The notes under the pieces are model-generated. The model searched no databases, was not told where the DNA came from, and saw nothing but the letters and a program-made list of their open reading frames with translations. The position numbers were made by a program, and so were the translations under genes. From Dehalobacter sp. DCM (GTDB taxonomy: Bacteria > Bacillota > Desulfitobacteriia > Desulfitobacteriales > Syntrophobotulaceae), in NCBI RefSeq assembly GCF_024972775.1, contig NZ_CP092282.1:3747525-3811524 (forward strand): a stretch of DNA of 64,000 nucleotides, given 5' to 3'. Of this stretch, positions 3,973 to 38,524 are shown in pieces (the stretch's first letter is position 1; each line of letters starts with the position of its first letter).

Positions 3973-4515
3973 CTAAGGTGTCACTGTTAATTTCACCGTA
4001 TTCTTACACCATTTGTTCGAGGGCTGCTCTTTTAAGATAGTCATCAGCGGGCCGCTGTTTCCTAAAGCCTCACCGTCCCGATTATATGCAAGTATACTGC
4101 CTTCCGCATTGATCATATCCGGTGTGTACTCGCAGGCATAATCATCTGAAGCGACAGCGGAAACCTTGGTGTACGCCTTCACTCCAGCTGCTTCCAGAAC
4201 TTTTGCCAGCGGGATTCCGGTGTATTCGTATTCCTGCTCCGATCCGTCTTTTTTCTTCATTGTCGCCTTCAAAGTGACTGCCGGAATGGCTCCCAATTCT
4301 TTTTCGGTCAGGGTCACTGTAGCGGATCCGTTAACAACATCGATGGTACAGGCGGGAACACTGCTTCCGGCAGTATCTGCCGGAGCCTGATTATTGTTCT
4401 GGGGCGCGTTGGCATTCGCATCCTGTTTAGCACCGGATGAACAGCCTGTCAGAACCAGTGCCAAAGAGAGCATAAGAACCGGTACAATAAGTAACTTTTT
4501 TGATACCTTGAACAT
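3973..4515 (-). CDS. lipoprotein with one sulfite-oxidase/YedY-like (Oxidored_molyb-like) beta-domain
   Basis: Signal peptide plus lipobox LTGC. The domain core (TGIPLAKVLEAAGVKAYTKVSAVASDDYACEYT...ILAYNRDGEALGNSGPLMTI...KW) resembles the G-[VI]-P-L / DGY / NGE-L / P-RL signature. Start chosen at ATG 4515 (MFKVSKK), 7 nt after GGAGGAG; the track start 4530 lies inside that SD. Confidence 0.6.
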   Translation of the reverse strand: MFKVSKKLLIVPVLMLSLALVLTGCSSGAKQDANANAPQNNNQAPADTAGSSVPACTIDVVNGSATVTLTEKELGAIPAVTLKATMKKKDGSEQEYEYTGIPLAKVLEAAGVKAYTKVSAVASDDYACEYTPDMINAEGSILAYNRDGEALGNSGPLMTILKEQPSNKWCKNTVKLTVTP

Positions 4516-4561
4516 TTCTTTCTCCTCCAAAAAATTATTTTTCTATTTTATTTGGACGAAA

Positions 4562-5386
4562 TCATCCAAAATAAAATGACAATAAGAATAAAATTACAAC
4601 AAGTATTCCCAGCAAAGCGATAACGGCATCTTTCCGGGTGAACAGCAGCGGGGTTAAAAATGTGCGTTTTGGATAAAGGCCAAATGCCCTGCCGTCCATG
4701 GACATACTCAGGGTATCTACCCGATGAATCGTCGTTGCCAGCAAGGGAACTAAAAGATAACGCAGCATGTTCATCAACCGTGTCCAAGAAAAGCCGTCAT
4801 AACGGACACCTTTTAAGCGGACAGCCAAGCGGATCTGACGGAAATCATCCTGGTATCCCGGAATAAAACGCAGTGCGGTAATCAGCATGAATCCCCAGCG
4901 ATAAGGAAGTCCGGCTTGAATCAAGCCCTGAACCAGCTTCATCGGATCGGTCGTGGCCACAAAAAGGAAACTGAGGCCGATGAGGTTTAGAAAACGCATT
5001 GCCAGCGCCAAGCCTTGCCCTAACCCCTCCGACCAGATCCCGAACTGCCATGGCCCAAGTCTGAACTGCCATAGCGGTGCCCCTTGCTGGCGGAAAAGAA
5101 TTTGGATAAGCAAGATAAACGCAGCAAAAAACAGAATGAACCGCAGTTTCCGGAGCCAATACCCCAAGCCTAAACCGGAAGAAATATACCCCATAAGCAA
5201 TATCCCAAGCAGTACAGCCCCTCGCGCCGCTTCGGCACTGATCAGCACCAGGCTGGCAAAAGCAAGCAAGAAACCTACTTTAACCAATGGATGAAGCTCC
5301 TGGATCCAGGAACTCCCCGGTATGAACTTCAGACCGGCCAAATCATCAAATTCCAATAGTTTATTAAAGAAAGACCGCGATTTCAT
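4562..5386 (-). CDS. ECF transporter transmembrane (T) component, EcfT/CbiQ family
   Basis: Polytopic membrane protein with the conserved C-terminal Arg/Gly motifs of EcfT. The start ATG 5386 overlaps the upstream ATPase stop (ATGA), indicating translational coupling. Confidence 0.8.
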   Translation of the reverse strand: MKSRSFFNKLLEFDDLAGLKFIPGSSWIQELHPLVKVGFLLAFASLVLISAEAARGAVLLGILLMGYISSGLGLGYWLRKLRFILFFAAFILLIQILFRQQGAPLWQFRLGPWQFGIWSEGLGQGLALAMRFLNLIGLSFLFVATTDPMKLVQGLIQAGLPYRWGFMLITALRFIPGYQDDFRQIRLAVRLKGVRYDGFSWTRLMNMLRYLLVPLLATTIHRVDTLSMSMDGRAFGLYPKRTFLTPLLFTRKDAVIALLGILVVILFLLSFYFG

Positions 5387-6921
5387 GGCAGGTAAGCCTC
5401 CAAGCCGTTCTCTTTCAACCATGCAAACACATCCCCCGGCGGCGCATCACAGCCAACCCGGCCTTGGTCGATAAACAGCAGGCGATGACAATAACGGGCA
5501 ACCACTTCCGGGTGATGACAGACCATCAGGACGGATCCGCCCCGCTGGCAATGGCTGTATAAGTGCGCCATTAAAAGATCGAGATGGGCGGCATCCTGAC
5601 CGGCCAGCGGCTCATCAAGCAAGAGCAAAGACGGTTCATAAGCTAATACCGACACGGCGCAAAGCCGTTTCTTTTCCCCCATACTAAGCAGGAAAGGCGA
5701 GTTGTCCCGAACCATCGCCAGAGAAAATTCCTCAATCAGTTTCTCCGTAGCCGGCTGAAAATTCATTGCAGGTTTAAGCATTTGGGCCGCCAATATGGCT
5801 TCTTGCCATACGGTCCGCTCTAAGATCTGGTGCCCGGGATTTTGCAGAACCATGCCGATATCCCGGACTCGGGACTGGATATCCGCTGCCGTTATATCCT
5901 GCCCGCGATAAAAAATCTTGCCTTGGTCCGGCCGGCAATATCCTAACAGGGACAAAAACAGCGTTGTTTTGCCGCTGCCATTTGCACCCATCACCGCCGT
6001 AATCTCACCCGGCGCCAGCTGAAACGTGATATCATCCAGAACAAGCCGGCCTCCCCGCCGTACGGTCATTCCCTGAACACACAGCAGTGGGTCGGCTGCT
6101 ATCGGGATATCTGTATGGTCGGCTTCTGTCTTTGCACCACGATTGCGGGCTTTGTCAAACTTCACTTTAGCCTGCAACGAATTGCTCAACGTGTTATCCA
6201 GCATGTCGCGATATACCGGGTTGACCTCCGAAGGGGTGCCGTCTGCCGCGATGCGCCCCTCATGGATAATCAGCATCCGATCAGCCATCGCGATAAACGG
6301 TTCTATCCGATGTTCGACCACGATCACGGTATAGCCGAATTGTTTAACTAACGTTATCAGACTGGCCGTCAAACCGGCTATGCCATCCGGATCAAGATTG
6401 GCCGTTGGTTCATCCAGCACCAAAATCCTGGGCTGCATGGCTAAGATGCAAGCCAGAGCGACGCGCTGTTTCTCTCCTCCCGATAAGCCGGCTACTTCGC
6501 GGTCCCGAAGGTGTTTGATATTCACAATACCGCATACGTCATCCAGCCTTGCTTGGATTTCAGCAGCCGCAAGGCGCAGGTTTTCCAAGCCAAAGGCGAC
6601 TTCCTGGCGCACTGTAAATGTACATAATTGGGCATCGGGGTCCTGCTGGACCAGCCCGGCTATCCCGGCGATTTTCTCCGGAGGGGTACTCTTGGTATTT
6701 TGGCCGTCAACCAGGACATCGCCTTCCATGTCTCCCGGCCAGCCGTAAGGAATAAACCCGCAAAGGGTATAAGCGAGGGTGGATTTGCCGCAGCCGCTAA
6801 GCCCGGTAACGAGGACAAAAGAACCCTCCGCAATGGTTAAATTTATGTTGCTTAGAGCCGGGTGGCTTTTTCCCGCATAGGTAAAGGAAAAATCCCGCAG
6901 TTCGATCATATTCTGTTTCAT
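5383..6921 (-). CDS. ECF transporter ATPase with fused tandem A1-A2 ABC domains
   Basis: Two complete ABC cassettes: GLSGCGKST + LSGGEKQRVALA + LVLDEPT, and GANGSGKTT + LSMGEKKRL + LLLDEP. There is a 4-nt ATGA overlap with the upstream gene. Confidence 0.85.
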   Translation of the reverse strand: MKQNMIELRDFSFTYAGKSHPALSNINLTIAEGSFVLVTGLSGCGKSTLAYTLCGFIPYGWPGDMEGDVLVDGQNTKSTPPEKIAGIAGLVQQDPDAQLCTFTVRQEVAFGLENLRLAAAEIQARLDDVCGIVNIKHLRDREVAGLSGGEKQRVALACILAMQPRILVLDEPTANLDPDGIAGLTASLITLVKQFGYTVIVVEHRIEPFIAMADRMLIIHEGRIAADGTPSEVNPVYRDMLDNTLSNSLQAKVKFDKARNRGAKTEADHTDIPIAADPLLCVQGMTVRRGGRLVLDDITFQLAPGEITAVMGANGSGKTTLFLSLLGYCRPDQGKIFYRGQDITAADIQSRVRDIGMVLQNPGHQILERTVWQEAILAAQMLKPAMNFQPATEKLIEEFSLAMVRDNSPFLLSMGEKKRLCAVSVLAYEPSLLLLDEPLAGQDAAHLDLLMAHLYSHCQRGGSVLMVCHHPEVVARYCHRLLFIDQGRVGCDAPPGDVFAWLKENGLEAYLP

Positions 6922-8009
6922 TGAAGGACAAACCGGCTTACTTTTTGGGCCCAGTAACCACCTTCGTAATTCGCGGCAATTATCCGCAGCGTGGTTTCTT
7001 TCCCTTTATTTTCTGTGAGCAGCATTTTGTCGTCGTTCATGACTTTAGCCAGATCAAACGTCACCTCATAGCCGTCGGTGGCAATAACCTTTAATTCTTT
7101 CGCCTCAGGCAAGGGCCGGGCATCCTTAAGAATAATCCGGACTGGCACACCGGTATAATCCTGCTCCGGTATATGGGTAACCTTGCCGTTGAGGGCTGCG
7201 CTGATTGTTACCTCCTCGCTGGCATACGCTTTTAATCCTGTCTTCATCGGCTGTTCGACTTTTCCTTCGATGCTCAGTACAACACCCTGCCACGGCAGCT
7301 GATAAATATTTTTATAGTAATATATTGCACCGCCTGTAAAAGACAAAAGAATGATAACCGCTAAACCAAGGGACATCCCAGTGAGGATTTTTTTCTTTGG
7401 GGAAACCGTTCGCTCTTTTTCTACCGCAAGCCGTCCCGGCCGCAGTGTCGTTAATAAGGCGAGGGATTGATGCGTCAAATAGCCACCGAAAATCGCCCCA
7501 GAAACTAGTGCAGCCAGGCAGATCAAACCGATATAGACAAAGGAGGCACCTGAAAAATACAGAATTTGAAAAACAATCACATTGGATACAGATGCTAAAG
7601 CACCGGCAATCACCAATGTGGGTAAATTAATCGTTTGTTTGCTTAAGAATATTATTATTTCAATAATTAACCCCTCAATAACGCAAACGAGGACGATGGG
7701 TAGTCCATGCGGGCTGCCGGTAAAAAACTCAACCAATCCTTTAATCAGACCGGCGGCGGCTGCGGCCCCGCGTTTACGGATCAGGCAGGGAACCATTAAC
7801 AACCAGAAAACATGGAGTCCGGCGATAAACTGCCCGGCTCCGAAAGGAACTCCGACCAGGCGATTCAAGATATTGCCGATATAACTGATATATGTACTCA
7901 GAACGCCGCCCAAGCCGCTGATCACAGCGATCATCAGGATATCCCTGCTTCTGCTCTTATAAGTTGTTTGCAGTGGGGGTTGCTCCACCTTATGCTGAGG
8001 CGTCTCCAT
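6918..8009 (-). CDS. ECF S-component-like polytopic membrane protein fused to a C-terminal extracytoplasmic YedY-like domain
   Basis: The N-terminal ~190 aa are hydrophobic with Gly-rich helices and sit in the S-component position immediately upstream of A and T. After a further TM the C-terminus (GVPVRIILKD...ATDGYEVTFDLAKV...GGYWAQKV) repeats the domain seen in the lipoproteins. The start overlaps the upstream stop (TAATG). Confidence 0.55.
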   Translation of the reverse strand: METPQHKVEQPPLQTTYKSRSRDILMIAVISGLGGVLSTYISYIGNILNRLVGVPFGAGQFIAGLHVFWLLMVPCLIRKRGAAAAAGLIKGLVEFFTGSPHGLPIVLVCVIEGLIIEIIIFLSKQTINLPTLVIAGALASVSNVIVFQILYFSGASFVYIGLICLAALVSGAIFGGYLTHQSLALLTTLRPGRLAVEKERTVSPKKKILTGMSLGLAVIILLSFTGGAIYYYKNIYQLPWQGVVLSIEGKVEQPMKTGLKAYASEEVTISAALNGKVTHIPEQDYTGVPVRIILKDARPLPEAKELKVIATDGYEVTFDLAKVMNDDKMLLTENKGKETTLRIIAANYEGGYWAQKVSRFVLQ

Positions 8010-22281: not shown

Positions 22282-23649
22282 TCATGTATCCTTCCGCTTA
22301 AGATTGGCCGTGACAGAATTGCTGTTTCTAATAGTATCAGCCATTCCTAATAAAATATTTTTATTATTCAACTCCGGGTTCTGCAAAACCTCTTCCATCA
22401 AATACCTTAGGGTATCGCCTAATCGCTTTCCCGGTTCAAAACCAATCATCCTCAGATCATTGCCATTCACCTTCAAATCCTTCAAGGCTAAAGGTTCTTT
22501 CTGGTTCAAAATACGTTCGACTTCTTTTCTCTGCCTGATGATTTTACTAAAGTCGTGAGGCGGCTTGCTTCCTTGGACATCTGCCAGCTGAAGTGCGAAT
22601 AGATCGTCCAAATTGTCAACGCCGACTCGGGTAATGAACCTTTTTATACTGGCAGTGCGCAGGGTGTCATACCGATACATATGATTATAGACGAGAATTC
22701 CAACTTTCTTCACTGTATCATGATCGAACTTTAAGCGCAACAAAATGTCTCTGGCCATGTCCGCGCCCAGTTTATGATGCTCGTAAAAATGACCAATGCC
22801 ATCTTCACCCAATGAAAATGCTGCCGGTTTCCCGATATCGTGCATTAAAGCCGCCCACCTTAGGGACAACGTATTGGGAACCGCATCCAGAACAAGCATA
22901 GTGTGTTCCAATACATCTTTATGATGATGCGGATTATGCTGATCAAAATCTGCCAGGCTGCAGATTTCAGGAAGGAAATAGCGCAATAATCCGGTTTTGT
23001 ATAAAAGGCTGATTCCCCGGCTTGGGAAATCAGAAATCAATATTTTATTCGTTTCCTCTCGGATTCTTTCCATGCTGATCCATTGAATCCGCTCCCTGTT
23101 TCGACAAAGCGAGTCGTAAACCACGCCATCGATAGTGGCGCCAAGCTGGCAGGCAAAACGAATACACCGCAGCATGCGCAGGGCATCTTCTCTGAATCGC
23201 TCGTCGGCATTGCCAACGGTGTTGATCACGTTCGCGCGAATCGCTTCCTGCCCACAGAATGGGTCGACGATACCCGTTTTCGGATTATAGGCAATCGCAT
23301 TCATCGTAAAATCCCGCCTGGCCAGATCCTCAATCAATGAGGATGAATATTTGATCGTGTCCGGCCGCCGGTTGTCCGAGTATTCGCCATCGATTCGATA
23401 CGTCGTCACTTCAAACGGCTCATGATCCAGCATCACGGTAATCGTCCCATGCTTCAGGCCGGTAGGAATGGTATGGTAATCCTTAAACACAGTGAGCATT
23501 TGCTCCGGCAAGGCGTTGGTGGTAATATCCCAATCCTTTGGCATTACCCCCAAGATCAGGTCACGGACGCAGCCACCCACGATAAAGGCTTCGTATCCGC
23601 TGAACTCTAATATTTCAATAATTCTTTTAGCTTTTGGATTTATAAGCAC
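22282..23649 (-). CDS. cca: CCA tRNA nucleotidyltransferase with HD phosphohydrolase domain
   Basis: Pol-beta head GGCVRD...DWD and HD motif ALMHDIGKP. GTG start with AGGAG 7 nt upstream. Confidence 0.8.
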   Translation of the reverse strand: MLINPKAKRIIEILEFSGYEAFIVGGCVRDLILGVMPKDWDITTNALPEQMLTVFKDYHTIPTGLKHGTITVMLDHEPFEVTTYRIDGEYSDNRRPDTIKYSSSLIEDLARRDFTMNAIAYNPKTGIVDPFCGQEAIRANVINTVGNADERFREDALRMLRCIRFACQLGATIDGVVYDSLCRNRERIQWISMERIREETNKILISDFPSRGISLLYKTGLLRYFLPEICSLADFDQHNPHHHKDVLEHTMLVLDAVPNTLSLRWAALMHDIGKPAAFSLGEDGIGHFYEHHKLGADMARDILLRLKFDHDTVKKVGILVYNHMYRYDTLRTASIKRFITRVGVDNLDDLFALQLADVQGSKPPHDFSKIIRQRKEVERILNQKEPLALKDLKVNGNDLRMIGFEPGKRLGDTLRYLMEEVLQNPELNNKNILLGMADTIRNSNSVTANLKRKDT

Positions 23650-28171: not shown

Positions 28172-28387
28172 GACTAAAAAAATTAACGCTTAACGTTTAA
28201 TCAGGATGGCCCGTCAATGTTTTTGCCGGGCCGTCCTAACGCTGATATCCTTATTGGGTACATTATTTTTAATATGGAATTAACGATCGTTATCCTTTAT
28301 AATTAATCATCATCAACGAAATGTTTATATCCTGACCACCCAGCCCGGAATTGTGTTTTTGCCTGTTATTTGGGAGGTGTTTTGTAT

Positions 28388-30139
28388 ATGATTCATTCTT
28401 TCTATAACAAACAAGATATCATATCGACTTCTGAAGTCCATACAGCTATAACTGCGATCAACTTTCAGAAAGAGCTTTTCTTACACAGCCGTAAGAACCA
28501 TGACACAACTTCCTTGTTAAGACCGGAGGTAGCTACTTCATGGAAACGATCCAAAAAATTGAAGATCGACCCAGAAATGCAGGAGCTTGCCCATGCCCTA
28601 AGTGAAAAGGAACTAAACGCACTATTGTACGATAAGCGAACATTTGTAGATCTGACGAAAACTCACCTTTATAGTTTTCTCCCCCTGCTCAATATACCCA
28701 AATGTGCCATTACGATCTTTGACGAAAACGGCACCTTATTAGACGTGTCTGATCCTTATCAACTGCTTCGTCTCAACCCGCACAGTGGTTCAATCTGGAG
28801 AGAAGAAACCGTTGGCACCACTTCGACTTCTCTCTCCATGGAATACGGAAAAATCGTTCAACTATCCGGACCACTTCATTATTGCAAAGCGCTGGAGAAT
28901 CAGTTGGCCACAACGGCACCGGTCTACGATTTAGAGGGAAATCGCTTAGGGATTATCACGATTATTCATCATCTCAGCGATGAGCTGTTTAATGTAGAAA
29001 CCAGCCAGCGGATTTTGCTTTGGATATCCGCTTTGCGGTATATGGTGGAAAGTCAATTCGCCCTGTTAAAACGCAGCTATACTCTGAATGGTGGGGGATT
29101 TGAAGGGAGAAACAGAGAATATCTCCTTCCTATACCGGAAGATCACAACATGCTTGACTGCTATGAAAAAGGGCTAACGGCAAACAGTCCTTTTTCGACG
29201 ATCTTGGGCGAGAGTCCGCAAATCCAAAACGTAATCCGGACGGCGGAACGCTTTGCACCAAGCGAGAGCGGTATTCTCCTTACCGGAGAAAGCGGTACGG
29301 GCAAAGAAATGTTTGCTCAGGCTATTCATCAGGCCAGTGGAAGAAGCGGTCCTTTTGTTGCGATTAATTGCGCTGCTCTTCCCGGCAATCTCATTGCCAG
29401 TGAATTGTTCGGATATGTCGGAGGGGCTTTCACCGGTGCCGAAAATAAAGGCCGCTTGGGGAGAATTGAATTGGCTAAGGAAGGAACTTTGTTTTTGGAT
29501 GAAATCGGCGATATGCCTTTGGAAATTCAGCCAAATCTTCTGCGTGTGCTGGAAGACAAAAAAGTCACACGGTTAGGCAGCAATAAAGACATTCACGTTG
29601 ACTTTCGTCTGATTGCAGCAACTAATGTAGACCTTTTTCAGCTTGTACAGGAGAAAAAATTCCGTGCTGACTTATATTACCGCCTGGAAACACTGCAAAT
29701 GAAATTACCACCACTTCGAGAAAGGGGTCGGGATATTTTGCTGATTGCGAACTATTTTCTGGAGGAAATTTGCACAAAAGCCGGACGGGCACCGCTCAAA
29801 CTAAATAAAGATACGGAAACATTCCTTCTTAAACACGCTTGGCCGGGGAATATCAGGCAGCTTAAAAACGCTATGGTTTACGCTGCAAATATGTGTCAAG
29901 GGCAAGTCATTACGCTGCTTGAGCTGCCTGAAAGCGTTTATCGCGATATGGATATGGCGTTACCAGAAAAAGATTTAGTAAATTTTCCAATGTCTTCTCT
30001 TCAAGAGATAGAACTAAATTCAATAAAAAAAGCTCTGCTTTTATCCGGAAATAATGTACGCGGTGCTGCAAAAGTGTTAGGATTGAGCAAGACTTCCATT
30101 TATCGAAAAATAAAAGAATACAATATTGACATAACGTAA
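28388..30139 (+). CDS. sigma-54-dependent transcriptional activator (AcoR-like N-terminal sensor, AAA+ core, Fis-type HTH)
   Basis: GESGTGKEMFAQAIH and the GAFTGA motif in the AAA+ core. C-terminal HTH AAKVLGLSKTSIYRKI. N-terminal SWKRS-containing sensor domain. SD GGGAGG. Confidence 0.85.
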   Translation: MIHSFYNKQDIISTSEVHTAITAINFQKELFLHSRKNHDTTSLLRPEVATSWKRSKKLKIDPEMQELAHALSEKELNALLYDKRTFVDLTKTHLYSFLPLLNIPKCAITIFDENGTLLDVSDPYQLLRLNPHSGSIWREETVGTTSTSLSMEYGKIVQLSGPLHYCKALENQLATTAPVYDLEGNRLGIITIIHHLSDELFNVETSQRILLWISALRYMVESQFALLKRSYTLNGGGFEGRNREYLLPIPEDHNMLDCYEKGLTANSPFSTILGESPQIQNVIRTAERFAPSESGILLTGESGTGKEMFAQAIHQASGRSGPFVAINCAALPGNLIASELFGYVGGAFTGAENKGRLGRIELAKEGTLFLDEIGDMPLEIQPNLLRVLEDKKVTRLGSNKDIHVDFRLIAATNVDLFQLVQEKKFRADLYYRLETLQMKLPPLRERGRDILLIANYFLEEICTKAGRAPLKLNKDTETFLLKHAWPGNIRQLKNAMVYAANMCQGQVITLLELPESVYRDMDMALPEKDLVNFPMSSLQEIELNSIKKALLLSGNNVRGAAKVLGLSKTSIYRKIKEYNIDIT

Positions 30140-30148
30140 TTATCGGCA

Positions 30149-31357
30149 TTAATCCTCTTCTCCCGCTTTAAAGTTATAGATGGGTTTGATGATCTTGTCG
30201 ATGTCCGCGGTGGGCCCGATATTGTTTACGATATCATCCATATTTTTATAGGCCATTGGGCACTCATCGAGGGTATCTTTATTCACCGACGTGGTATAGA
30301 CATCCTTCATTTGTTTCTTGAATTCGGATAACGTAAACGCTTGTTTGGCCTTCGTCCGGCTCATCAGCCGCCCTGCCCCATGGGGCGCAGAATAATTCCA
30401 GCCTTTATTCCCCTTGCCGATGCAGATCAGGCTGCCGTCCCGCATATTGATTGGAATCAGCAGGCGTTCCCCTGCCTTCGCGGACACCGCTCCCTTACGT
30501 AAGATCATCGCTTCGGTATCGATATAGTTATGGGTGGTCGTGAATTGTTCCACTACGTCGAGCTTCATTCCTTTGACGATCTCCATGACCATGGCTTTAC
30601 GGTTCAATTCGGCAAACTGCTGAACGATTTTCATATCATGGATATAGTCATCAAACAGATTTCCGCTGACATAAGCCAGTGCATAGGGGACATCCGTAAT
30701 CACTTGACTTTTCAGTTCTTTTAAAGCCTTGGCGATCTCTTTATCCCGACCTTCGGCTTTATAGCGGGCAATCAAGGCTTCCAGATCCGGCTTTTCATTT
30801 TGGTTTAACTGTTGGTAACCGGCTTCCTGATAGTATTTGGCTACTTCCAGCCCCAAATGACGGCTGCCCGAGTGCACGACAACATACAAATCGCCTTCCT
30901 GGTCTTTATTGACCTCAATAAAGTGATTGCCTCCGCCTAATGTACCGATACTCTTCTGCGCTCTGTCCAGTTTGACTGCCTTCAGACAGCGCAGCGCCGT
31001 CAGGTCGATCTGTTCGTTATACCGGTGCGGGGTCTCCCTTACGGTATAGCCCGACGGAATGGATTCATAGATCAATTTATCCAGCTTCTGCAGCTCCAGC
31101 CGTTTATTGCTGATCCGGATGGTTTCCATCCCACAGCCGATATCCACCCCAACTAAGTTGGGAACCACTTTATCGGTAATCGTCATGGTAGTGCCGATGG
31201 TACACCCGGCCCCGGCATGGACGTCGGGCATGATCCGGATTTTACTGTCTTTGGCAAATTCCTGGTTGCATAGCGTTGCGATCTGGGACGCTGCGCCTTC
31301 CTCTAGTGTATCTGTAAATATTTTGGCTATATTATATTTTCCTCTAATTTCTTGCAT
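30149..31357 (-). CDS. rtcB: RNA-splicing ligase RtcB
   Basis: Full-length 402 aa with metal-ligand motifs (PDVHAGAGCTIG, HNYI..., HGAGR). Confidence 0.9.
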   Translation of the reverse strand: MQEIRGKYNIAKIFTDTLEEGAASQIATLCNQEFAKDSKIRIMPDVHAGAGCTIGTTMTITDKVVPNLVGVDIGCGMETIRISNKRLELQKLDKLIYESIPSGYTVRETPHRYNEQIDLTALRCLKAVKLDRAQKSIGTLGGGNHFIEVNKDQEGDLYVVVHSGSRHLGLEVAKYYQEAGYQQLNQNEKPDLEALIARYKAEGRDKEIAKALKELKSQVITDVPYALAYVSGNLFDDYIHDMKIVQQFAELNRKAMVMEIVKGMKLDVVEQFTTTHNYIDTEAMILRKGAVSAKAGERLLIPINMRDGSLICIGKGNKGWNYSAPHGAGRLMSRTKAKQAFTLSEFKKQMKDVYTTSVNKDTLDECPMAYKNMDDIVNNIGPTADIDKIIKPIYNFKAGEED

Positions 31358-31445: not shown

Positions 31446-32564
31446 TTAATCGCTCACTTTTGCCGTCAACAGATGATTCAGCTGTTCGAGCAGAGTACCC
31501 CCGCCAGTCAGGGAAATACTGCCGATCTTATCACAGATCTTCTCCAGGAATTCCAGTTCTTTTAAGCGGTATAGTGTTTGGTTTTCCTCCATCAACTTGG
31601 CTGTATTCATAAGACTCCGGGTCGAAGCGATCTCCTCTCTACGGGTGATGACGTTGGCCTGGGCACGTTTTTCAGCCACCAGTACGGTATTCAAAATATC
31701 TTTAATATCGCCGGGCAAGATAACATCTTTAACCCCGACAAAGACAAATTCGGCCCCGAAAGCAGTACTTTTCTCTCTTAATTTCTCTAGGACAAAAGTT
31801 CCGACTTCTTGCTTTTTCTGAAGCAGGTCATCCAATCGCAACGAACCGACGTATTCTCTTAAAATAAGCTGCAGCATAATGTAAAGCTGTTCCTCGAATG
31901 ATTTGATTTCAAGCACCTGTACGGGATCAACAATTTTATACTGGCAGACAAAGTTCAAGCGTAAGCTGATCTTATCTTCCGTCATGATTTCCTGTCCGTT
32001 CAAATCCAGTTGCTGCTGCCGCATATCCAGATTCCTGACGGCAACCTGAACGGGACTCTTCCAGTAGAAATACTTCCCGGGATTTAGTGTTTTCTGCATA
32101 ACGTTATTGTAATAAAGAATCCCTTTTTCATGGTCGGCAACTTCCCAATAGCTTAAGTATCCCGCCAGCTTCGGGTGATAAAACAACGCCGGTTCGATGC
32201 CGTTTTGGATTTCCGGATTGCGGATATCAATGGTGATAAAATCATGCTGTTTCAACAGCTTCCAGTATGCATATTTACCGGATGGCAGAACATCGATAAA
32301 TTTGCCGTCTTCATAATGGAGCACAAGCTCGTAATCCCGAACATCGATGACTGCAAGCTCCTTCAGCAGCTCGGAATCTTCCAGGAAGAGATTGATATTT
32401 TTACCGCTTGTCTCAAATCGGTTATTAATATCCGTAATTATTACTTTATATCTGCCAAATGGATTGAGGATATATCTTCCTGGTTTCAAGCATTTAACAT
32501 AATTGCCGTCCTTAAATAATAATCCTCTCTCGTCATTTTTAATCCTTACTCTCATAACATCCAC
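31446..32564 (-). CDS. cytoplasmic SPFH/band-7 domain protein with N-terminal triple PGxY beta-repeat extension
   Basis: The C-terminal ~200 aa are SPFH-like (LRLNFVCQYKIVDPVQV..., coiled-coil tail). There is no TM; the N-terminus carries three repeats of KPGRY/PSGKY/NPGKY. Confidence 0.65.
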   Translation of the reverse strand: MDVMRVRIKNDERGLLFKDGNYVKCLKPGRYILNPFGRYKVIITDINNRFETSGKNINLFLEDSELLKELAVIDVRDYELVLHYEDGKFIDVLPSGKYAYWKLLKQHDFITIDIRNPEIQNGIEPALFYHPKLAGYLSYWEVADHEKGILYYNNVMQKTLNPGKYFYWKSPVQVAVRNLDMRQQQLDLNGQEIMTEDKISLRLNFVCQYKIVDPVQVLEIKSFEEQLYIMLQLILREYVGSLRLDDLLQKKQEVGTFVLEKLREKSTAFGAEFVFVGVKDVILPGDIKDILNTVLVAEKRAQANVITRREEIASTRSLMNTAKLMEENQTLYRLKELEFLEKICDKIGSISLTGGGTLLEQLNHLLTAKVSD

Positions 32565-33045
32565 CTCTTTATCTTGACATTGGTTTGAACCTTTTTCGAG
32601 AATCCTTCCCGAAGTTCGGCGGAGTACTGCTTTAGGAGCATAGACCTCCGTTGTTACCGGAATAAATTATGTTTCGGGCATTGCCCGTCATAAATCATCC
32701 CCAAAGTAAGAGCGGATTTGTTTTGATCCGGTATCCGCGTACTGCAAGGCTTACGTTCAGGTGTCCTGAGCAGACCGGCTGTCCAGAACGTAAGGATTCT
32801 CGTCAAAGATTCCTTTTGGCTCCATGAAATTTCTCGATTCTCAGTCGCGTGCTTACCACAGCTTCAGATGTCACTAATCTGACGGGGAGTCGAACCCCTT
32901 TGGTGTTTCTAACCCCTTGCCGGCATACCTCACTCTGAAATTAAGGAGGCACCGTAAGACCCTACCGAAATCTTCGCAATGAATTAGGAACAATTTAAGT
33001 ATATAGGGAAAATTTAGGGCTCTAAAGACAAAAAGTTTGCAACCT

Positions 33046-35350
<2,305 letters not shown>

Positions 35351-37266: not shown

Positions 37267-38466
37267 CTATTTAATGCCGAGCGACTTCACTTTGCGATAC
37301 AGGGTAGATTTGCTGAGGCCAAGTATTTCCGCTGCCTTAGCGATATTGTTGCCGGTGATGAGCATCGCGTTCCGTATCGCATTTTCTTCAGCGTTTCTTA
37401 CGGTATATTCCTGATCGACCTCAGCTGATGGTTGATCGATTGTTAAAGAAGGCACATTCTCTTCCACACGGGTTTTACTATTTCTAATTCCACACATCAC
37501 TTCCAACGGCAAATCCTTCGGCAGGATGATATCATGCTCGTAAATGTGCAAGGCATAAATCATCGCATTCTCTAATTGCCGTACATTACCCGGCCAATGA
37601 TAATCCAGTAATTTATATTGGGCATCTTTATCAATCACAGGAACTTTACTGCCGGCAGGGCAGTGTTTCTTTATTAAAAACTTAGCCAGAGAGATTATGT
37701 CTACCCCCCTCTGACGCAAAGGCGGAATATTTACCGTAAGTACGGAAAGACGATAAAATAAATCCAGACGAAATGACCCTTCTTCAACCATAATTTGAAG
37801 ATCTTTATTGGTTGCTGCGATTAATCTGAAATCGACGGGCCGATACTGTTGTCCGCCAACACGTAAGACCTGTTTATTTTCCAACACTCTTAAGAGTACA
37901 GCTTGTGTTTCCAGCGGCATATCGCCGATTTCATCCAGAAAGAGGGTACCACGTTCGGCTAATTCAATCTTGCCCTGGCTCCCGCCTTTCTTGGCCCCTG
38001 TAAACGCGCCTGCGTCATAGCCAAATAACTCACTTTCGATGAGATTCCGTGGTATCGCAGCACAATTCAGAACCACAAAATTCCCTTCAGGGCGGCCCTG
38101 ATTATGAATTGCCTGAGCAAATAGTTCTTTGCCTGTACCACTCTCACCGATCAGAAGGATATTTGCCGAAGATGGCGCAAAACGCTTCGCCAGCTTTTTG
38201 GCTTGAATCATCTGGTCGCTCTCCCCAATGATACTATTCAAGTCAAAACCGGTTTTGAGCCCGTGATTCACAGTCTCTTCATATTCATCATTATCGATTA
38301 TTTCTTTAACTTCCTCGTCATTGGACGGCAGTTCAACATACTCAAAATTTTCTTCTGCTTTCAATTGCGCATCGCATTTAATACAGTTTAATCGTGTTCG
38401 TGGATTTGCTGCGCCACAGTTCGGGCAGACTTTAATTTTAGTAGGCGTCGTCGGGCGAAAGCACAT
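37267..38466 (-). CDS. sigma-54-dependent activator with N-terminal zinc ribbon in place of a sensor domain
   Basis: CPNCGAANPRTRLNCIKCDAQL zinc ribbon, acidic linker, AAA+ core (GESGTGKELFAQAIH, GAFTGA), C-terminal HTH. ATG 38466 follows AGGTGGTG; the track start is a GTG inside that SD. Confidence 0.8.
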   Translation of the reverse strand: MCFRPTTPTKIKVCPNCGAANPRTRLNCIKCDAQLKAEENFEYVELPSNDEEVKEIIDNDEYEETVNHGLKTGFDLNSIIGESDQMIQAKKLAKRFAPSSANILLIGESGTGKELFAQAIHNQGRPEGNFVVLNCAAIPRNLIESELFGYDAGAFTGAKKGGSQGKIELAERGTLFLDEIGDMPLETQAVLLRVLENKQVLRVGGQQYRPVDFRLIAATNKDLQIMVEEGSFRLDLFYRLSVLTVNIPPLRQRGVDIISLAKFLIKKHCPAGSKVPVIDKDAQYKLLDYHWPGNVRQLENAMIYALHIYEHDIILPKDLPLEVMCGIRNSKTRVEENVPSLTIDQPSAEVDQEYTVRNAEENAIRNAMLITGNNIAKAAEILGLSKSTLYRKVKSLGIK

Positions 38467-38524
38467 GGGATTAAACACCACCTGAATTCAATAGGTCTCT
38501 CTAATAATTTATTATACAATAATT

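Follow-up and report, generated by a model that had tools for sequence, protein, structure and literature searches.

The spacer between a pair of WYL/WCX regulator genes and the slipin and rtcB genes of Dehalobacter sp. DCM contains, on its minus strand, short stretches that resemble the arms of a tRNA and stand in an order that is not that of a tRNA. The question is what this element is and what it might do beside a gene for an RNA ligase. The window, that is the whole stretch of 64,000 nucleotides that was analyzed, was compared with homologous loci from other genomes. The flagged motif is a rearranged tRNA look-alike and it belongs to a conserved family. The non-coding spacer itself, described in the initial annotation as 480 nt long and spanning 32565-33045, is genuine, but its bounds have to be corrected to 32556-33045. 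The slipin gene starts at ATG 32555 and not at GTG 32564, and its product thus has 369 residues, the same length as the protein P0001.

The T-loop motif AAGGGG-TTCGACT-CCCCG is found on the minus strand at 32900-32883, exactly as first described. Its loop has the seven nucleotides ascribed to it, but the stem is not made of five clean pairs, because it consists of four G-C pairs and an outer A.G mismatch. The second motif, GCT-GTGGTA-AGC (32862-32851, minus strand), is a D-arm-like hairpin with a GG dinucleotide, as had been noted. It is separated from the T arm by 20 nt, however, and not by ~25 nt, and this gap is filled by another hairpin, TCAGAT-TAGTGAC-ATCTGA, which has a 6-bp stem and takes the place of the acceptor stem. 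This acceptor-like stem has neither a free 3' end nor a CCA. A fourth arm, CGCGA-CTGAGAA-TCGAG (32849-32833), was overlooked earlier. It is a local, anticodon-like hairpin with a 5-bp stem that includes one G.A mismatch, and its 7-nt loop fits the pattern of the family, in which the triplet is preceded by C and U and followed by two A residues, as in a real anticodon loop.

The arms of the module (32833-32899, minus strand) are therefore arranged in the order T arm, closed acceptor-like hairpin, D arm and anticodon-like arm, and the anticodon arm and the T arm flank the permutation break. The remarks that a 3' CCA is missing and that the T-then-D order is unlike a normal tRNA are borne out by this arrangement, and the reading of that order as a circularly permuted tRNA mimic tied to rtcB is supported. 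The slipin gene is on the same strand and starts 278-344 nt downstream of the module. With the A.G mismatch in the T stem, the G.A mismatch in the anticodon stem and a reduced D arm, the window copy is the most degenerate one seen among its close relatives. The closest of these relatives carry two tandem modules, the first of which has been lost in the window.

Table 1. Positions of the tRNA-like module, the surrounding leader RNA and the neighboring genes in the window.
Feature	Positions	Strand	Sequence or composition	Basis or remark
T arm	32883..32899	-	A-GGGG / UUCGACU / CCCC-G	sequence and R1 alignment
Acceptor-like stem, loop-closed	32864..32882	-	UCAGAU-UAGUGAC-AUCUGA, 6 bp	read from sequence
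Reduced D arm, GG dinucleotide kept	32851..32862	-	GCU-GUGGUA-AGC	sequence; aligns with family consensus UGGUAGAGCA
Anticodon-like arm	32833..32849	-	CGCGA-CUGAGAA-UCGAG	sequence and R1 alignment
Whole conserved structured leader, ~405 nt	32587..32991	-		conserved blocks across 79 aligned sequences; ends predicted
Inverted repeat and T-run, just after WYL/WCX gene	33033..33063	-	GAGTTTGCA...TTGCAAACTT	terminator scan
Predicted sigma-70-type promoter	32998..33026	-	TTTAGA, 17 nt, TATACT	promoter scan
P1 stem-loop, 5' domain	32954..32977	-	GC-G-AAGAT / GTCTT-AC	conserved UUC at 5' side of loop
P2/P3 extended hairpin	32922..32953	-	GGUGCCUC...GAGGUAUGCC	conserved internal-loop nucleotides UGC / GUAUG
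P-LR, 5' strand	32792..32812	-	GAAUCUUU-GAC-GAGAAUCCUU	pairs with 32587-32607
P-LR, 3' strand	32587..32607	-	AAGGAUUCUC-GAA-AAAGGUUC	ends 32 nt before slipin start codon
X strand	32728..32743	-	AGUACGC, then near-invariant GGAUACCGG	pairs with Y, 32623-32630
Y strand	32618..32630	-	GCAGUACU, one bulged nucleotide, then conserved CCGCC	
Slipin (SPFH/Band-7) gene	31446..32555	-	369 aa	Pfam Band_7 match
RtcB RNA ligase gene	30149..31357	-		Pfam RtcB match, E=9e-64
Two overlapping WYL/WCX regulator genes, upstream of the RNA	33046..35329 (34040-35329, 33046-34107)	-		Pfam WYL, WCX

Standard tRNA and Rfam scans miss this class of RNA entirely. ARAGORN reported no tRNA gene in the 64-kb window and its tmRNA search was negative. 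An Rfam scan of the window at the gathering score matched no family, RF00005, tmRNA, T-box and riboswitches included, and RF00005 gave nothing in the window even at E<=10. The best weak match of a permissive Rfam scan was a tymovirus tRNA-like element, whose 14.1 bits (E=3.2) fall short of the threshold of 40. A canonical tRNA or a tRNA pseudogene was rejected on the negative ARAGORN and RF00005 results, the permuted order and the absence of an open 7-bp acceptor stem, and a tmRNA on the negative ARAGORN tmRNA search and the lack of an Rfam tmRNA match. The T-loop motif is not significant by itself, because GGTTCRANYCC is expected 0.69 times per window and at least one copy is present in 53 of 100 shuffles. 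The single-sequence fold of the 196-nt core region is no better than that of shuffled sequences (z = -0.13) and is thus uninformative, which is why the structure was derived from comparison.

A covariance model, R1, was built from 42 other loci with the window sequence excluded. It finds a single site in the 64-kb window (39.5 bits, E=1.1e-9), the runner-up having 8.6 bits in the 128 kb of strand searched. Of the 80 homologous loci, 77 also have an R1 match where it is expected, upstream of slipin, and 35 of these 77 were outside the seed. The site is considered significant because of this window-free match and the conservation in the homologous loci. The RNA is always on the same strand as slipin and directly upstream of it, and in Bacillota loci the module is typically 300-500 nt from the slipin gene. 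The carriers comprise Clostridia, Paenibacillaceae, Thermoactinomycetaceae and Negativicutes (Pelosinus), with at least seven named Bacillota genera among them.

The helices of the family covary. When the T, acceptor-like and anticodon-like stems are counted, double changes occur in 11 of 15 pairs and 92% of the cells are paired, a level that none of 500 shuffles attained. The T stem is 96.5% paired with double changes in three of its five pairs, and the anticodon-like stem is 99.5% paired with double changes in all five. An equivalent of the acceptor-like hairpin is found in nearly all loci, its sequence differing from one locus to another. The GG of the D arm is nearly invariant (family alignment A3), and the anticodon-type loop pattern is conserved whereas the 'anticodon' triplet varies. 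When the arms are put back into tRNA order, ARAGORN calls a tRNA in 22 of 74 family members, compared to none of the 74 in native order; the window copy yields no call even after such re-ordering. Four relatives have D and anticodon arms that attain the RF00005 threshold.

The initial annotation had named covariance models, covariation in orthologous spacers and conservation in related genomes as evidence that would bear on the element. The models give a divided answer, since the public Rfam models have no match but the family-specific model does. Compensatory changes are present in the T, acceptor-like and anticodon-like stems, and the element recurs upstream of slipin in the related Bacillota loci as counted above.

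Judged from an alignment of 79 sequences (78 loci and the window), the tRNA-like module is one domain, the central one, of a conserved leader of ~400 nt whose other parts include a 5' domain with covariation and a pair of long-range helices. The leader runs between predicted ends, from a transcription start near 32991 to the end of the long-range helix P-LR, and then continues into the slipin mRNA. Neither the sequence nor a terminator scan revealed an intrinsic terminator between P-LR and the slipin start codon. The -10 box of the promoter and the subsequent AAATTGTTCC are conserved in Clostridial relatives. The inverted repeat at 33033..33063 looks like a terminator. It may also serve as an operator, because its sequence is conserved in Clostridial relatives; its GTTTGCAA...TTGCAAAC-TTTTTGTC recurs in L001, L005 and L009.

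In the 5' domain, RNAalifold analysis of 50 sequences gave GC in 38, AU in 11 and UA in one for P1 pair 11-28, and UA in 22, UG in 20 and CG in seven for P1 pair 14-25. The P3 pairs show many double changes in the same set. Columns 32 and 65 of P2/P3 covary perfectly in alignment A4, being A-U in 40 sequences and G-C in 10 with no exception. A model of the 5' domain, R2, scores 40.6 bits at 32922..32953, where the window sequence is itself part of the R2 seed.

The two long-range helices are supported by block-wise column counts, which were used because a global MAFFT alignment with RNAalifold on the 79 upstream regions was too noisy for helices of this kind. The 10-bp core of P-LR is canonical in 693 of 790 cells, compared to 567 +/- 8 when partners are shuffled among sequences, and the observed value was reached in none of 1000 shuffles. 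P-LR is also predicted by the MFE fold. The X-Y helix is canonical in 494 of 553 cells, compared to 390 +/- 7 in shuffles (0/1000) and to only 129-247 in slid registers. A control in which duplex energies were calculated with swapped partners was positive but blunt, the native partner having a median rank of 10 of 75, with fixed windows that missed longer leaders. Two further pairings were rejected. An alternative pairing of P1 with the P-LR strands, which could have formed a switch, depends on a similarity that is not consistently kept in L032 and L073, and a GCGGA/UCCGC pairing has GCAGA variants that are uncompensated. A T-box or other riboswitch leader was also rejected, as Rfam has no matching family, no conserved terminator precedes the start codon, and the conserved structure leaves the ribosome-binding site unpaired. 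Most leaders contain short ATG-ORFs, but their positions and lengths are inconsistent, so that no conserved small ORF was found in the leader.

The slipin encoded in the window is identical to the Dehalobacter sp. DCM slipin. It has no transmembrane segment, its maximum 19-aa hydropathy being 1.2, and solved structures exist for its stomatin homologs. In the window rtcB is immediately downstream of slipin. The RNA stays immediately upstream of slipin at loci in which rtcB precedes the RNA (L013, L015, L022, L024, L031, L035, L074 and L079), and also at loci that have no rtcB. Because the RNA remains with slipin when rtcB moves or is absent, it appears to be coupled to slipin rather than to be a leader of the operon as a whole. 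RtcB or RlaP is found in many of the related loci. The WYL/WCX genes are syntenic in L001, L002, L009 and L018, and L005 has the pair further upstream. Slipin identity among the homologous loci is 51-72%, which excludes a single recent mobile insertion, and no slipin homolog was found in the phage collection searched. The sigma-54 activator gene at 28370-30139 was considered as RtcR and rejected; NCBIfam gives only generic AAA/HTH matches, far below the RtcR cut-off, and the gene is convergent with rtcB. Inspection by eye of the spacer in the window revealed no sigma-54 promoter.

R1 also matches upstream of distant slipin homologs (33-37% identity) in Proteobacteria, with 29.2 bits in Burkholderia and 23.6 bits in E. 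coli. Burkholderia has a canonical-order tRNA, called by ARAGORN, that is enclosed by two T arms. The related module of E. coli precedes an island of slipin, nucleotidyltransferase and zeta-toxin genes that is present in ~30% of complete E. coli genomes; this locus has RlaP and a sigma-54 promoter. The 5'-domain model R2 has no significant match in the E. coli or Burkholderia loci.

A Band-7-associated tRNA-like ncRNA beside RtcB, b7a-tRNA, has been predicted (Burroughs and Aravind, Nucleic Acids Res 2016;44:8525, as cited in bioRxiv 10.1101/312249). According to this secondary source, b7a-tRNA 'strongly resembles an authentic tRNA' and may be functionally redundant with YrlA; as far as that account of the literature extends, it contains no experimental validation of the prediction. 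The quoted resemblance is borne out in Burkholderia by its canonical-order tRNA. The secondary description and the gene context together point to the window RNA being of the b7a-tRNA class, because its constant partner is the slipin (Band-7) gene.

What could such an RNA do? The reading that we favor, with a probability of roughly 0.55, is that the permuted module, central in a ~400-nt leader of the b7a-tRNA class, acts as the RNA partner of a soluble slipin/RtcB repair complex, and for this we infer the following mechanism. The leader would be transcribed from its own promoter together with slipin and rtcB, under the control of the upstream WYL pair. Either the folded RNA itself or a fragment released from the 5' UTR by processing would act as RNA partner to the slipin oligomer. 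Its elbow, shaped like that of a tRNA and formed by the T-loop docked on the GG of the D-loop, and its anticodon-like loop might provide a handle or a substrate mimic. The RNA could in this way bring tRNA-recognizing repair enzymes to the slipin scaffold, namely RtcB at the present locus and, for other genomes, a nucleotidyltransferase of the RlaP type, an arrangement that would be analogous to that of a Y RNA tethering Ro60 to an effector. Translation stress induces slipin and rtcB together in Anabaena (PMC10272220).

The main rival is a cis-acting role, which we regard as unlikely but deserving of serious attention. The structured 5' UTR would sense RNA damage or the status of tRNA processing and thereby control how stable the slipin-rtcB mRNA is or how well it is translated. 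Nucleases that cut tRNAs could, for instance, also cleave the anticodon-like loop of the leader, which RtcB could reseal, or this loop could bind a tRNA-recognizing factor. Such a role is equally compatible with the layout, because only 32 nt, and no terminator, separate the structure from the start codon. The same-strand position directly upstream of slipin at every locus and the conserved anticodon-type loop with its variable triplet also agree with it, and a response to damaged tRNAs is known for RtcR-controlled rtc operons (PMC7790460). However, no expression platform was found in the leader, where the ribosome-binding site is unpaired and a conserved terminator/antiterminator pair is lacking, and Rfam gave no T-box or riboswitch match. 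Furthermore, the element is not at the 5' end of the operon where rtcB precedes the RNA, and dedicated protein regulators are already there, the WYL pair in the window and the sigma-54 promoter in E. coli.

An improbable reading is that the tRNA-like fold, with no partner-specific function, serves to process or stabilize the transcript, either recruiting RNase P, RNase Z or other tRNA-processing enzymes for its cleavage or shielding the 5' end of the mRNA from exonucleases. Such an element would leave ~300 nt of further conserved, covarying structure and the strict pairing with slipin genes unexplained. tRNA-like modules do serve as processing signals elsewhere, and the present one is located at the 5' side of an mRNA. 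The YrlA of M. smegmatis is cut by RNase P (PMC4201824), but the acceptor-like stem of the window-type module is just 5-6 bp long and closed by a loop, and YrlA stems of this kind are reported in bioRxiv 10.1101/312249 to make poor substrates for RNase P.

The initial annotation had proposed a YrlA-type tRNA mimic. In architecture YrlA is indeed the closest analog, with a common order of T arm, closed acceptor-like stem and D arm as well as an association with rtcB, and bioRxiv 10.1101/312249, a secondary source in this respect, places YrlA occasionally beside Band-7 genes. That the window RNA is itself a bacterial Y RNA that binds Ro60 (Rsr) is nevertheless very improbable. Neither the flanking genes nor the ten largest ORFs in the window include a TROVE/Ro60 gene. 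The Ro-binding motif GNCGAAN0-1G lacks conservation: of the 81 upstream sequences (those of 80 loci and the window), just 14 contain it at all, and at no fixed place. The anticodon arm is a local hairpin and not a stem made from the RNA termini, and no Rfam family was matched.

A decayed tRNA gene, an attachment scar of a phage or integrative element, or a chance match has a negligible likelihood: the T-loop motif alone has chance frequency, ARAGORN and Rfam are negative and the window copy carries mismatches, but 77 of the 80 loci keep the position relative to slipin, which is fixed across no fewer than seven named Bacillota genera, related modules exist in Proteobacteria, all three helices counted have compensatory changes and the window-free model scores the site at E=1e-9, so that the 'degraded tRNA' and 'integration scar' of the initial annotation are contradicted.

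The partnership with slipin and RtcB could be part of something larger, although this extension is tentative. The module may be a domain of an undescribed class of ~400-nt RNAs, in which a 5' domain (P1-P3) is combined with one or two permuted modules and with a 3' domain of several helices that is closed by a helix with a span of 200 nt. Together with RNA-repair enzymes and a soluble stomatin-like protein that forms cages, such an RNA might build a bacterial ribonucleoprotein that would bear comparison with Ro60-Y RNA or with vaults; it might instead be a decoy or sensor for tRNA-cutting toxins. To our knowledge, few physiological substrates of bacterial RtcB are established and little is known of its cofactors. 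For an element that has no Rfam match at threshold, the present analysis supplies coordinates, an architecture supported by covariation and working covariance models. Because E. coli has a related module, the old question of the function of tRNA mimics in RNA-repair operons is testable in a tractable organism.

Canonical tRNA (RF00005), tmRNA and the viral tRNA-like structures have in common with the window RNA the T-loop UUCGANU, the GG of the D-loop and an anticodon-type loop. They differ in that the window RNA has no ARAGORN call and no Rfam match at the gathering score. Circularly permuted tRNA genes, which are found in red algae and in some archaea, resemble it in that their arms are permuted and their acceptor stem is initially closed. 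An RtcB-type ligase takes part in the maturation of such genes. Their precursors, however, give rise to functional tRNAs with a 7-bp acceptor stem and CCA, whereas the acceptor-like stem of the window type has 5-6 bp and the window copy is unrecognizable as a tRNA even when re-ordered.

YrlA (Chen et al. 2014; Wang et al. 2018, PDB 6cu1) has not only the same order of its first three arms but also conserved T-loop and D-loop nucleotides, no CCA end and a genomic link to rtcB. Its origin from tandem tRNAs has been proposed as likely (bioRxiv 10.1101/312249; PMC4201824). In YrlA the 'anticodon stem' is built from the 5' and 3' ends and continues into the Ro60-binding helix with its GNCGAAN0-1G motif, whereas the window RNA has a local hairpin with a 5-bp stem and a 7-nt loop, and its partner gene is slipin and not rsr. 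Finally, by the secondary description b7a-tRNA differs from the window RNA, which is permuted, has a closed acceptor stem, is undetected by tRNA finders and has its module embedded in a structured leader of ~400 nt. Nevertheless, both have tRNA-type T, D and anticodon arms, and both lie next to a Band-7/SPFH (slipin) gene in RtcB-centered RNA-repair neighborhoods.

Comparative sequence evidence establishes the spacer upstream of the window's slipin (SPFH/Band-7) gene as encoding a conserved, covarying predicted RNA structure with tRNA-type loops. The T-arm and D-arm motifs that the initial annotation had placed on the minus strand of the WYL/WCX-SPFH spacer are borne out by reading the sequence; the anticodon-like arm was absent from that description. 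The arms come in the order expected of a circularly permuted tRNA: T, closed acceptor-like hairpin, D, anticodon-like. The T-loop motif carries no statistical weight by itself, because 0.69 copies of GGTTCRANYCC are expected per window. ARAGORN finds neither a tRNA nor a tmRNA in the window. The window copy is degenerate compared to its family, with an A.G mismatch in the T stem, a G.A mismatch in the anticodon stem and a D stem of 3 bp, and ARAGORN still calls no tRNA when this copy is re-ordered in silico to tRNA order.

Features of the window locus and of related loci (window positions unless a locus is named)
Feature	Coordinates	Strand	Remark
WYL-WCX gene	34040-35329	minus	gene order
WCX-bearing gene	33046-34107	minus	gene order
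Spacer with tRNA-like module, 490 nt		minus	between WCX-bearing gene and slipin
Promoter, sigma-70 type	33026-32998	minus	predicted; -10 box kept in relatives
P1 stem-loop	32977-32954	minus	5' domain
P2/P3 extended hairpin	32953-32922	minus	5' domain
T arm	32899-32883	minus	A-GGGG-UUCGACU-CCCC-G; sequence reading
Acceptor-like closed hairpin	32882-32864	minus	UCAGAU-UAGUGAC-AUCUGA; sequence reading
D arm	32862-32851	minus	GCU-GUGGUA-AGC; sequence reading
Anticodon-like arm	32849-32833	minus	CGCGA-CUGAGAA-UCGAG; 5-bp stem, 7-nt loop; sequence reading
P-LR long-range helix	32812-32792 with 32607-32587	minus	closes 3' domain; covariation
X-Y inner helix	X 32743-32737 with Y 32630-32623	minus	covariation
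Slipin (SPFH/Band-7) gene	31446-32555	minus	downstream of spacer
rtcB	30149-31357	minus	downstream of slipin
tRNA-like unit, canonical order	L082 (Burkholderia multivorans) 4629-4775		between two T arms; ARAGORN tRNA-Phe(aaa), anticodon loop just 3 nt
E. coli island	L083 (NZ_CP116176.1) 4464-7879; L081 4660-5000
RlaP / Pol-beta-family 'RNA repair pathway' nucleotidyltransferase	L054 (Paenibacillus) 5134-5925; L083 (E. coli) 6126-6917		directly 3' of slipin

The window slipin is 100% identical to the slipin of Dehalobacter sp. DCM, which assigns the window to this organism. Slipin protein alignment yielded 80 loci from Clostridia, Paenibacillaceae, Thermoactinomycetaceae and Pelosinus, with slipin identities of 51-72%. 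Of these, 74 have a T-loop motif on the slipin strand, 300-600 nt upstream of the gene; 3' of it come a closed hairpin and a D arm, and in most of the 74 also a CUCGA-N7-UCGAG arm. Covariation in orthologous spacers, named as a check when the motif was first annotated, proved strong in the 42 cores on which it was counted, the window being left out. There 92% of cells are paired (27-51% in slid registers), 11 of 15 pairs have changes on both sides, and the observed covariation values were reached by none of 500 shuffles.

The outcome of covariance-model searches depends on the model. Rfam 15 gives zero matches in the window at the gathering score, and its sole match at E<=10 is a sub-threshold tymovirus tRNA-like element. 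A search of the entire window, filters off, with R1, the model built from the 42 cores, gives one strong match, 32831-32901 on the minus strand (39.5 bits, E=1.1e-9; runner-up 8.6 bits). R1 matches the expected site in 77 of the 80 loci, 35 of them outside the seed; the exceptions are L007, whose upstream region is incomplete, L035, and L078, where just a T arm is present. In Paenibacillus xanthanilyticus the slipin RNA is preceded by an ordinary tandem tRNA cluster (L065, 1599-3059). Its tRNA-tRNA junctions are false positives of R1, the T arm of one tRNA scoring together with the D arm of the next. False positives of this type were known before for models of YrlA, the Ro60-bound bacterial Y RNA.

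When the arms are re-ordered to acceptor-D-anticodon-T, ARAGORN calls a tRNA in 22 of the 74 family members, compared to none in the native order. The D and anticodon arms alone pass the Rfam tRNA threshold in four relatives. The closest Clostridial relatives (L001-L006, L009 and L018) have two tandem modules, T1-acceptor1-D1 followed by T2-acceptor2-D2-anticodon (e.g. L002 3584-3718). The first is missing from the Dehalobacter window, which we read as loss. Thermoactinomycetaceae loci L008, L011, L038 and L056 likewise have two T arms.

As judged from conservation, the tRNA-like module is part of a predicted multi-domain leader RNA of ~400 nt, with conserved blocks throughout, between the predicted transcription start and a point ~30 nt short of the start codon. 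Double changes occur in 12 of 16 predicted pairs of the 5' domain, where one column pair alternates perfectly between A-U (40 sequences) and G-C (10). Canonical pairs make up 693 of the 790 cells of the 10-bp P-LR core, compared to 567 +/- 8 with partners exchanged among sequences (0/1000 shuffles); P-LR has clear swaps, e.g. GAGAAUCCUU/AAGGAUUCUC in the window and UUGGAGUCUUC/GAGGACUCCAA in L027. The X and Y strands, directly 5' of the near-invariant GGAUACCGG and of a conserved CCGCC, respectively, form canonical pairs in 494 of 553 cells; shuffling gives 390 +/- 7, and slid registers give 129-247. The leader contains no conserved terminator or conserved ORF, and the ribosome-binding site (32569-32561) is outside the conserved structure. 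A terminator-like hairpin from a scan (32713-32730, minus strand; CGGAUCAAAACAAAUCCG then CUCUUACUUU) is probably part of a variable inner hairpin and not a terminator, because the U-run is absent in relatives; its 3' arm AUCCG(C) is also complementary to a conserved GCGGAU just upstream.

The same comparison establishes a physical coupling of the RNA to slipin genes, whatever the order of the repair genes. In at least 8 loci the RNA is flanked by rtcB and slipin, and in many others it accompanies slipin alone. Its neighbourhoods are those of RNA repair: RtcB, RlaP and WYL regulators. In L054 and L083 the nucleotidyltransferase occupies the place of rtcB in the window. The window's WYL/WCX ORFs, with start sites as listed, share 68 nt (34040-34107); many Paenibacillus loci instead have one divergent WYL-WCX gene upstream of the RNA. 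A terminator-like inverted repeat 3' of the WYL/WCX gene (33033-33063, minus strand; GTTTGCA...TTGCAAAC then TTTTTGTC) is kept in sequence in L001, L005 and L009, which is unusual for a plain terminator, and may also be an operator of the WYL regulators.

A sigma-54 activator convergent with rtcB (28370-30139, plus strand) was considered as RtcR and rejected, its similarity to RtcR being generic only; it has an uncharacterised N-terminal region of 270 aa and an AAA/HTH part closest to PrdR. A second sigma-54-dependent activator lies nearby (37267-38481, minus strand). At a distance of ~9 kb from the tRNA-like RNA there is a gene of the CCA-adding enzyme/poly(A) polymerase family with an HD domain (22282-23649, minus strand), probably the housekeeping cca.

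With regard to function, we infer co-transcription of the RNA with slipin; the RNA would be the partner of a soluble slipin oligomer. The window slipin has no hydrophobic segment of membrane-spanning length, and the solved structures of its relatives are oligomeric stomatins. Its tRNA-shaped elbow and anticodon-like loop would be presented to repair enzymes that recognise tRNA, similar to the way in which Y RNA works with Ro60. The main rival is a leader that would sense damage in cis. The evidence effectively excludes that the element is an inert tRNA remnant, a scar of integration or a chance match.

Outside Bacillota, Burkholderia chromids, Photobacterium, Citrobacter and E. coli have slipin homologues with 33-37% identity. 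R1 has two tandem matches upstream of the B. multivorans slipin (29.2 and 19.3 bits) and one upstream of that of E. coli (23.6 bits, E=1e-5), where the module is permuted and tRNA-like. The E. coli slipin gene is followed by genes for a Pol-beta-type nucleotidyltransferase and a zeta toxin, and 1626 of 5426 complete E. coli genomes (~30%) have this island, located between yjbD and lysC. A sigma-54-like promoter, TGGCACGCTTCTCGCA, precedes the E. coli leader. The leader 5' domain is not detectable in the proteobacterial loci. The canonical-order tRNA that ARAGORN calls in Burkholderia extends from the D arm through a short anticodon arm to the second T arm; its position between two T arms suggests that the family arose from tandem tRNA units, giving canonical and permuted forms.

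The initial annotation's proposal of a tRNA mimic linked to rtcB stands, but neither YrlA nor a scar does. The order T, closed acceptor, D is common to YrlA and the window element. However, the YrlA termini form the anticodon stem and the Ro60-binding helix, whereas the anticodon arm of the window element is local; the defining YrlA features tested are absent from it. No Ro60/TROVE protein is found among the genes flanking the RNA or the ten largest ORFs of the window. Band-7-associated tRNA-like RNA (b7a-tRNA) was described by Wang et al. as strongly resembling authentic tRNA, as possibly redundant with YrlA and as never validated (bioRxiv 10.1101/312249); our literature search found no later paper on it. 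The class, predicted in 2016, is experimentally untouched in the literature we searched and matches no Rfam family. The Burkholderia canonical-order form is probably the source of the published description. To our knowledge, the permuted architecture, the ~400-nt multi-domain leader and the related module in ~30% of E. coli genomes are described in none of the papers we read. From the YrlA mismatch and the comparison with the published description, the window element is therefore filed under the Band-7-associated class, known to us through a secondary description, as a Bacillota-type variant that is permuted, has a local anticodon arm and lies in a multi-domain leader.
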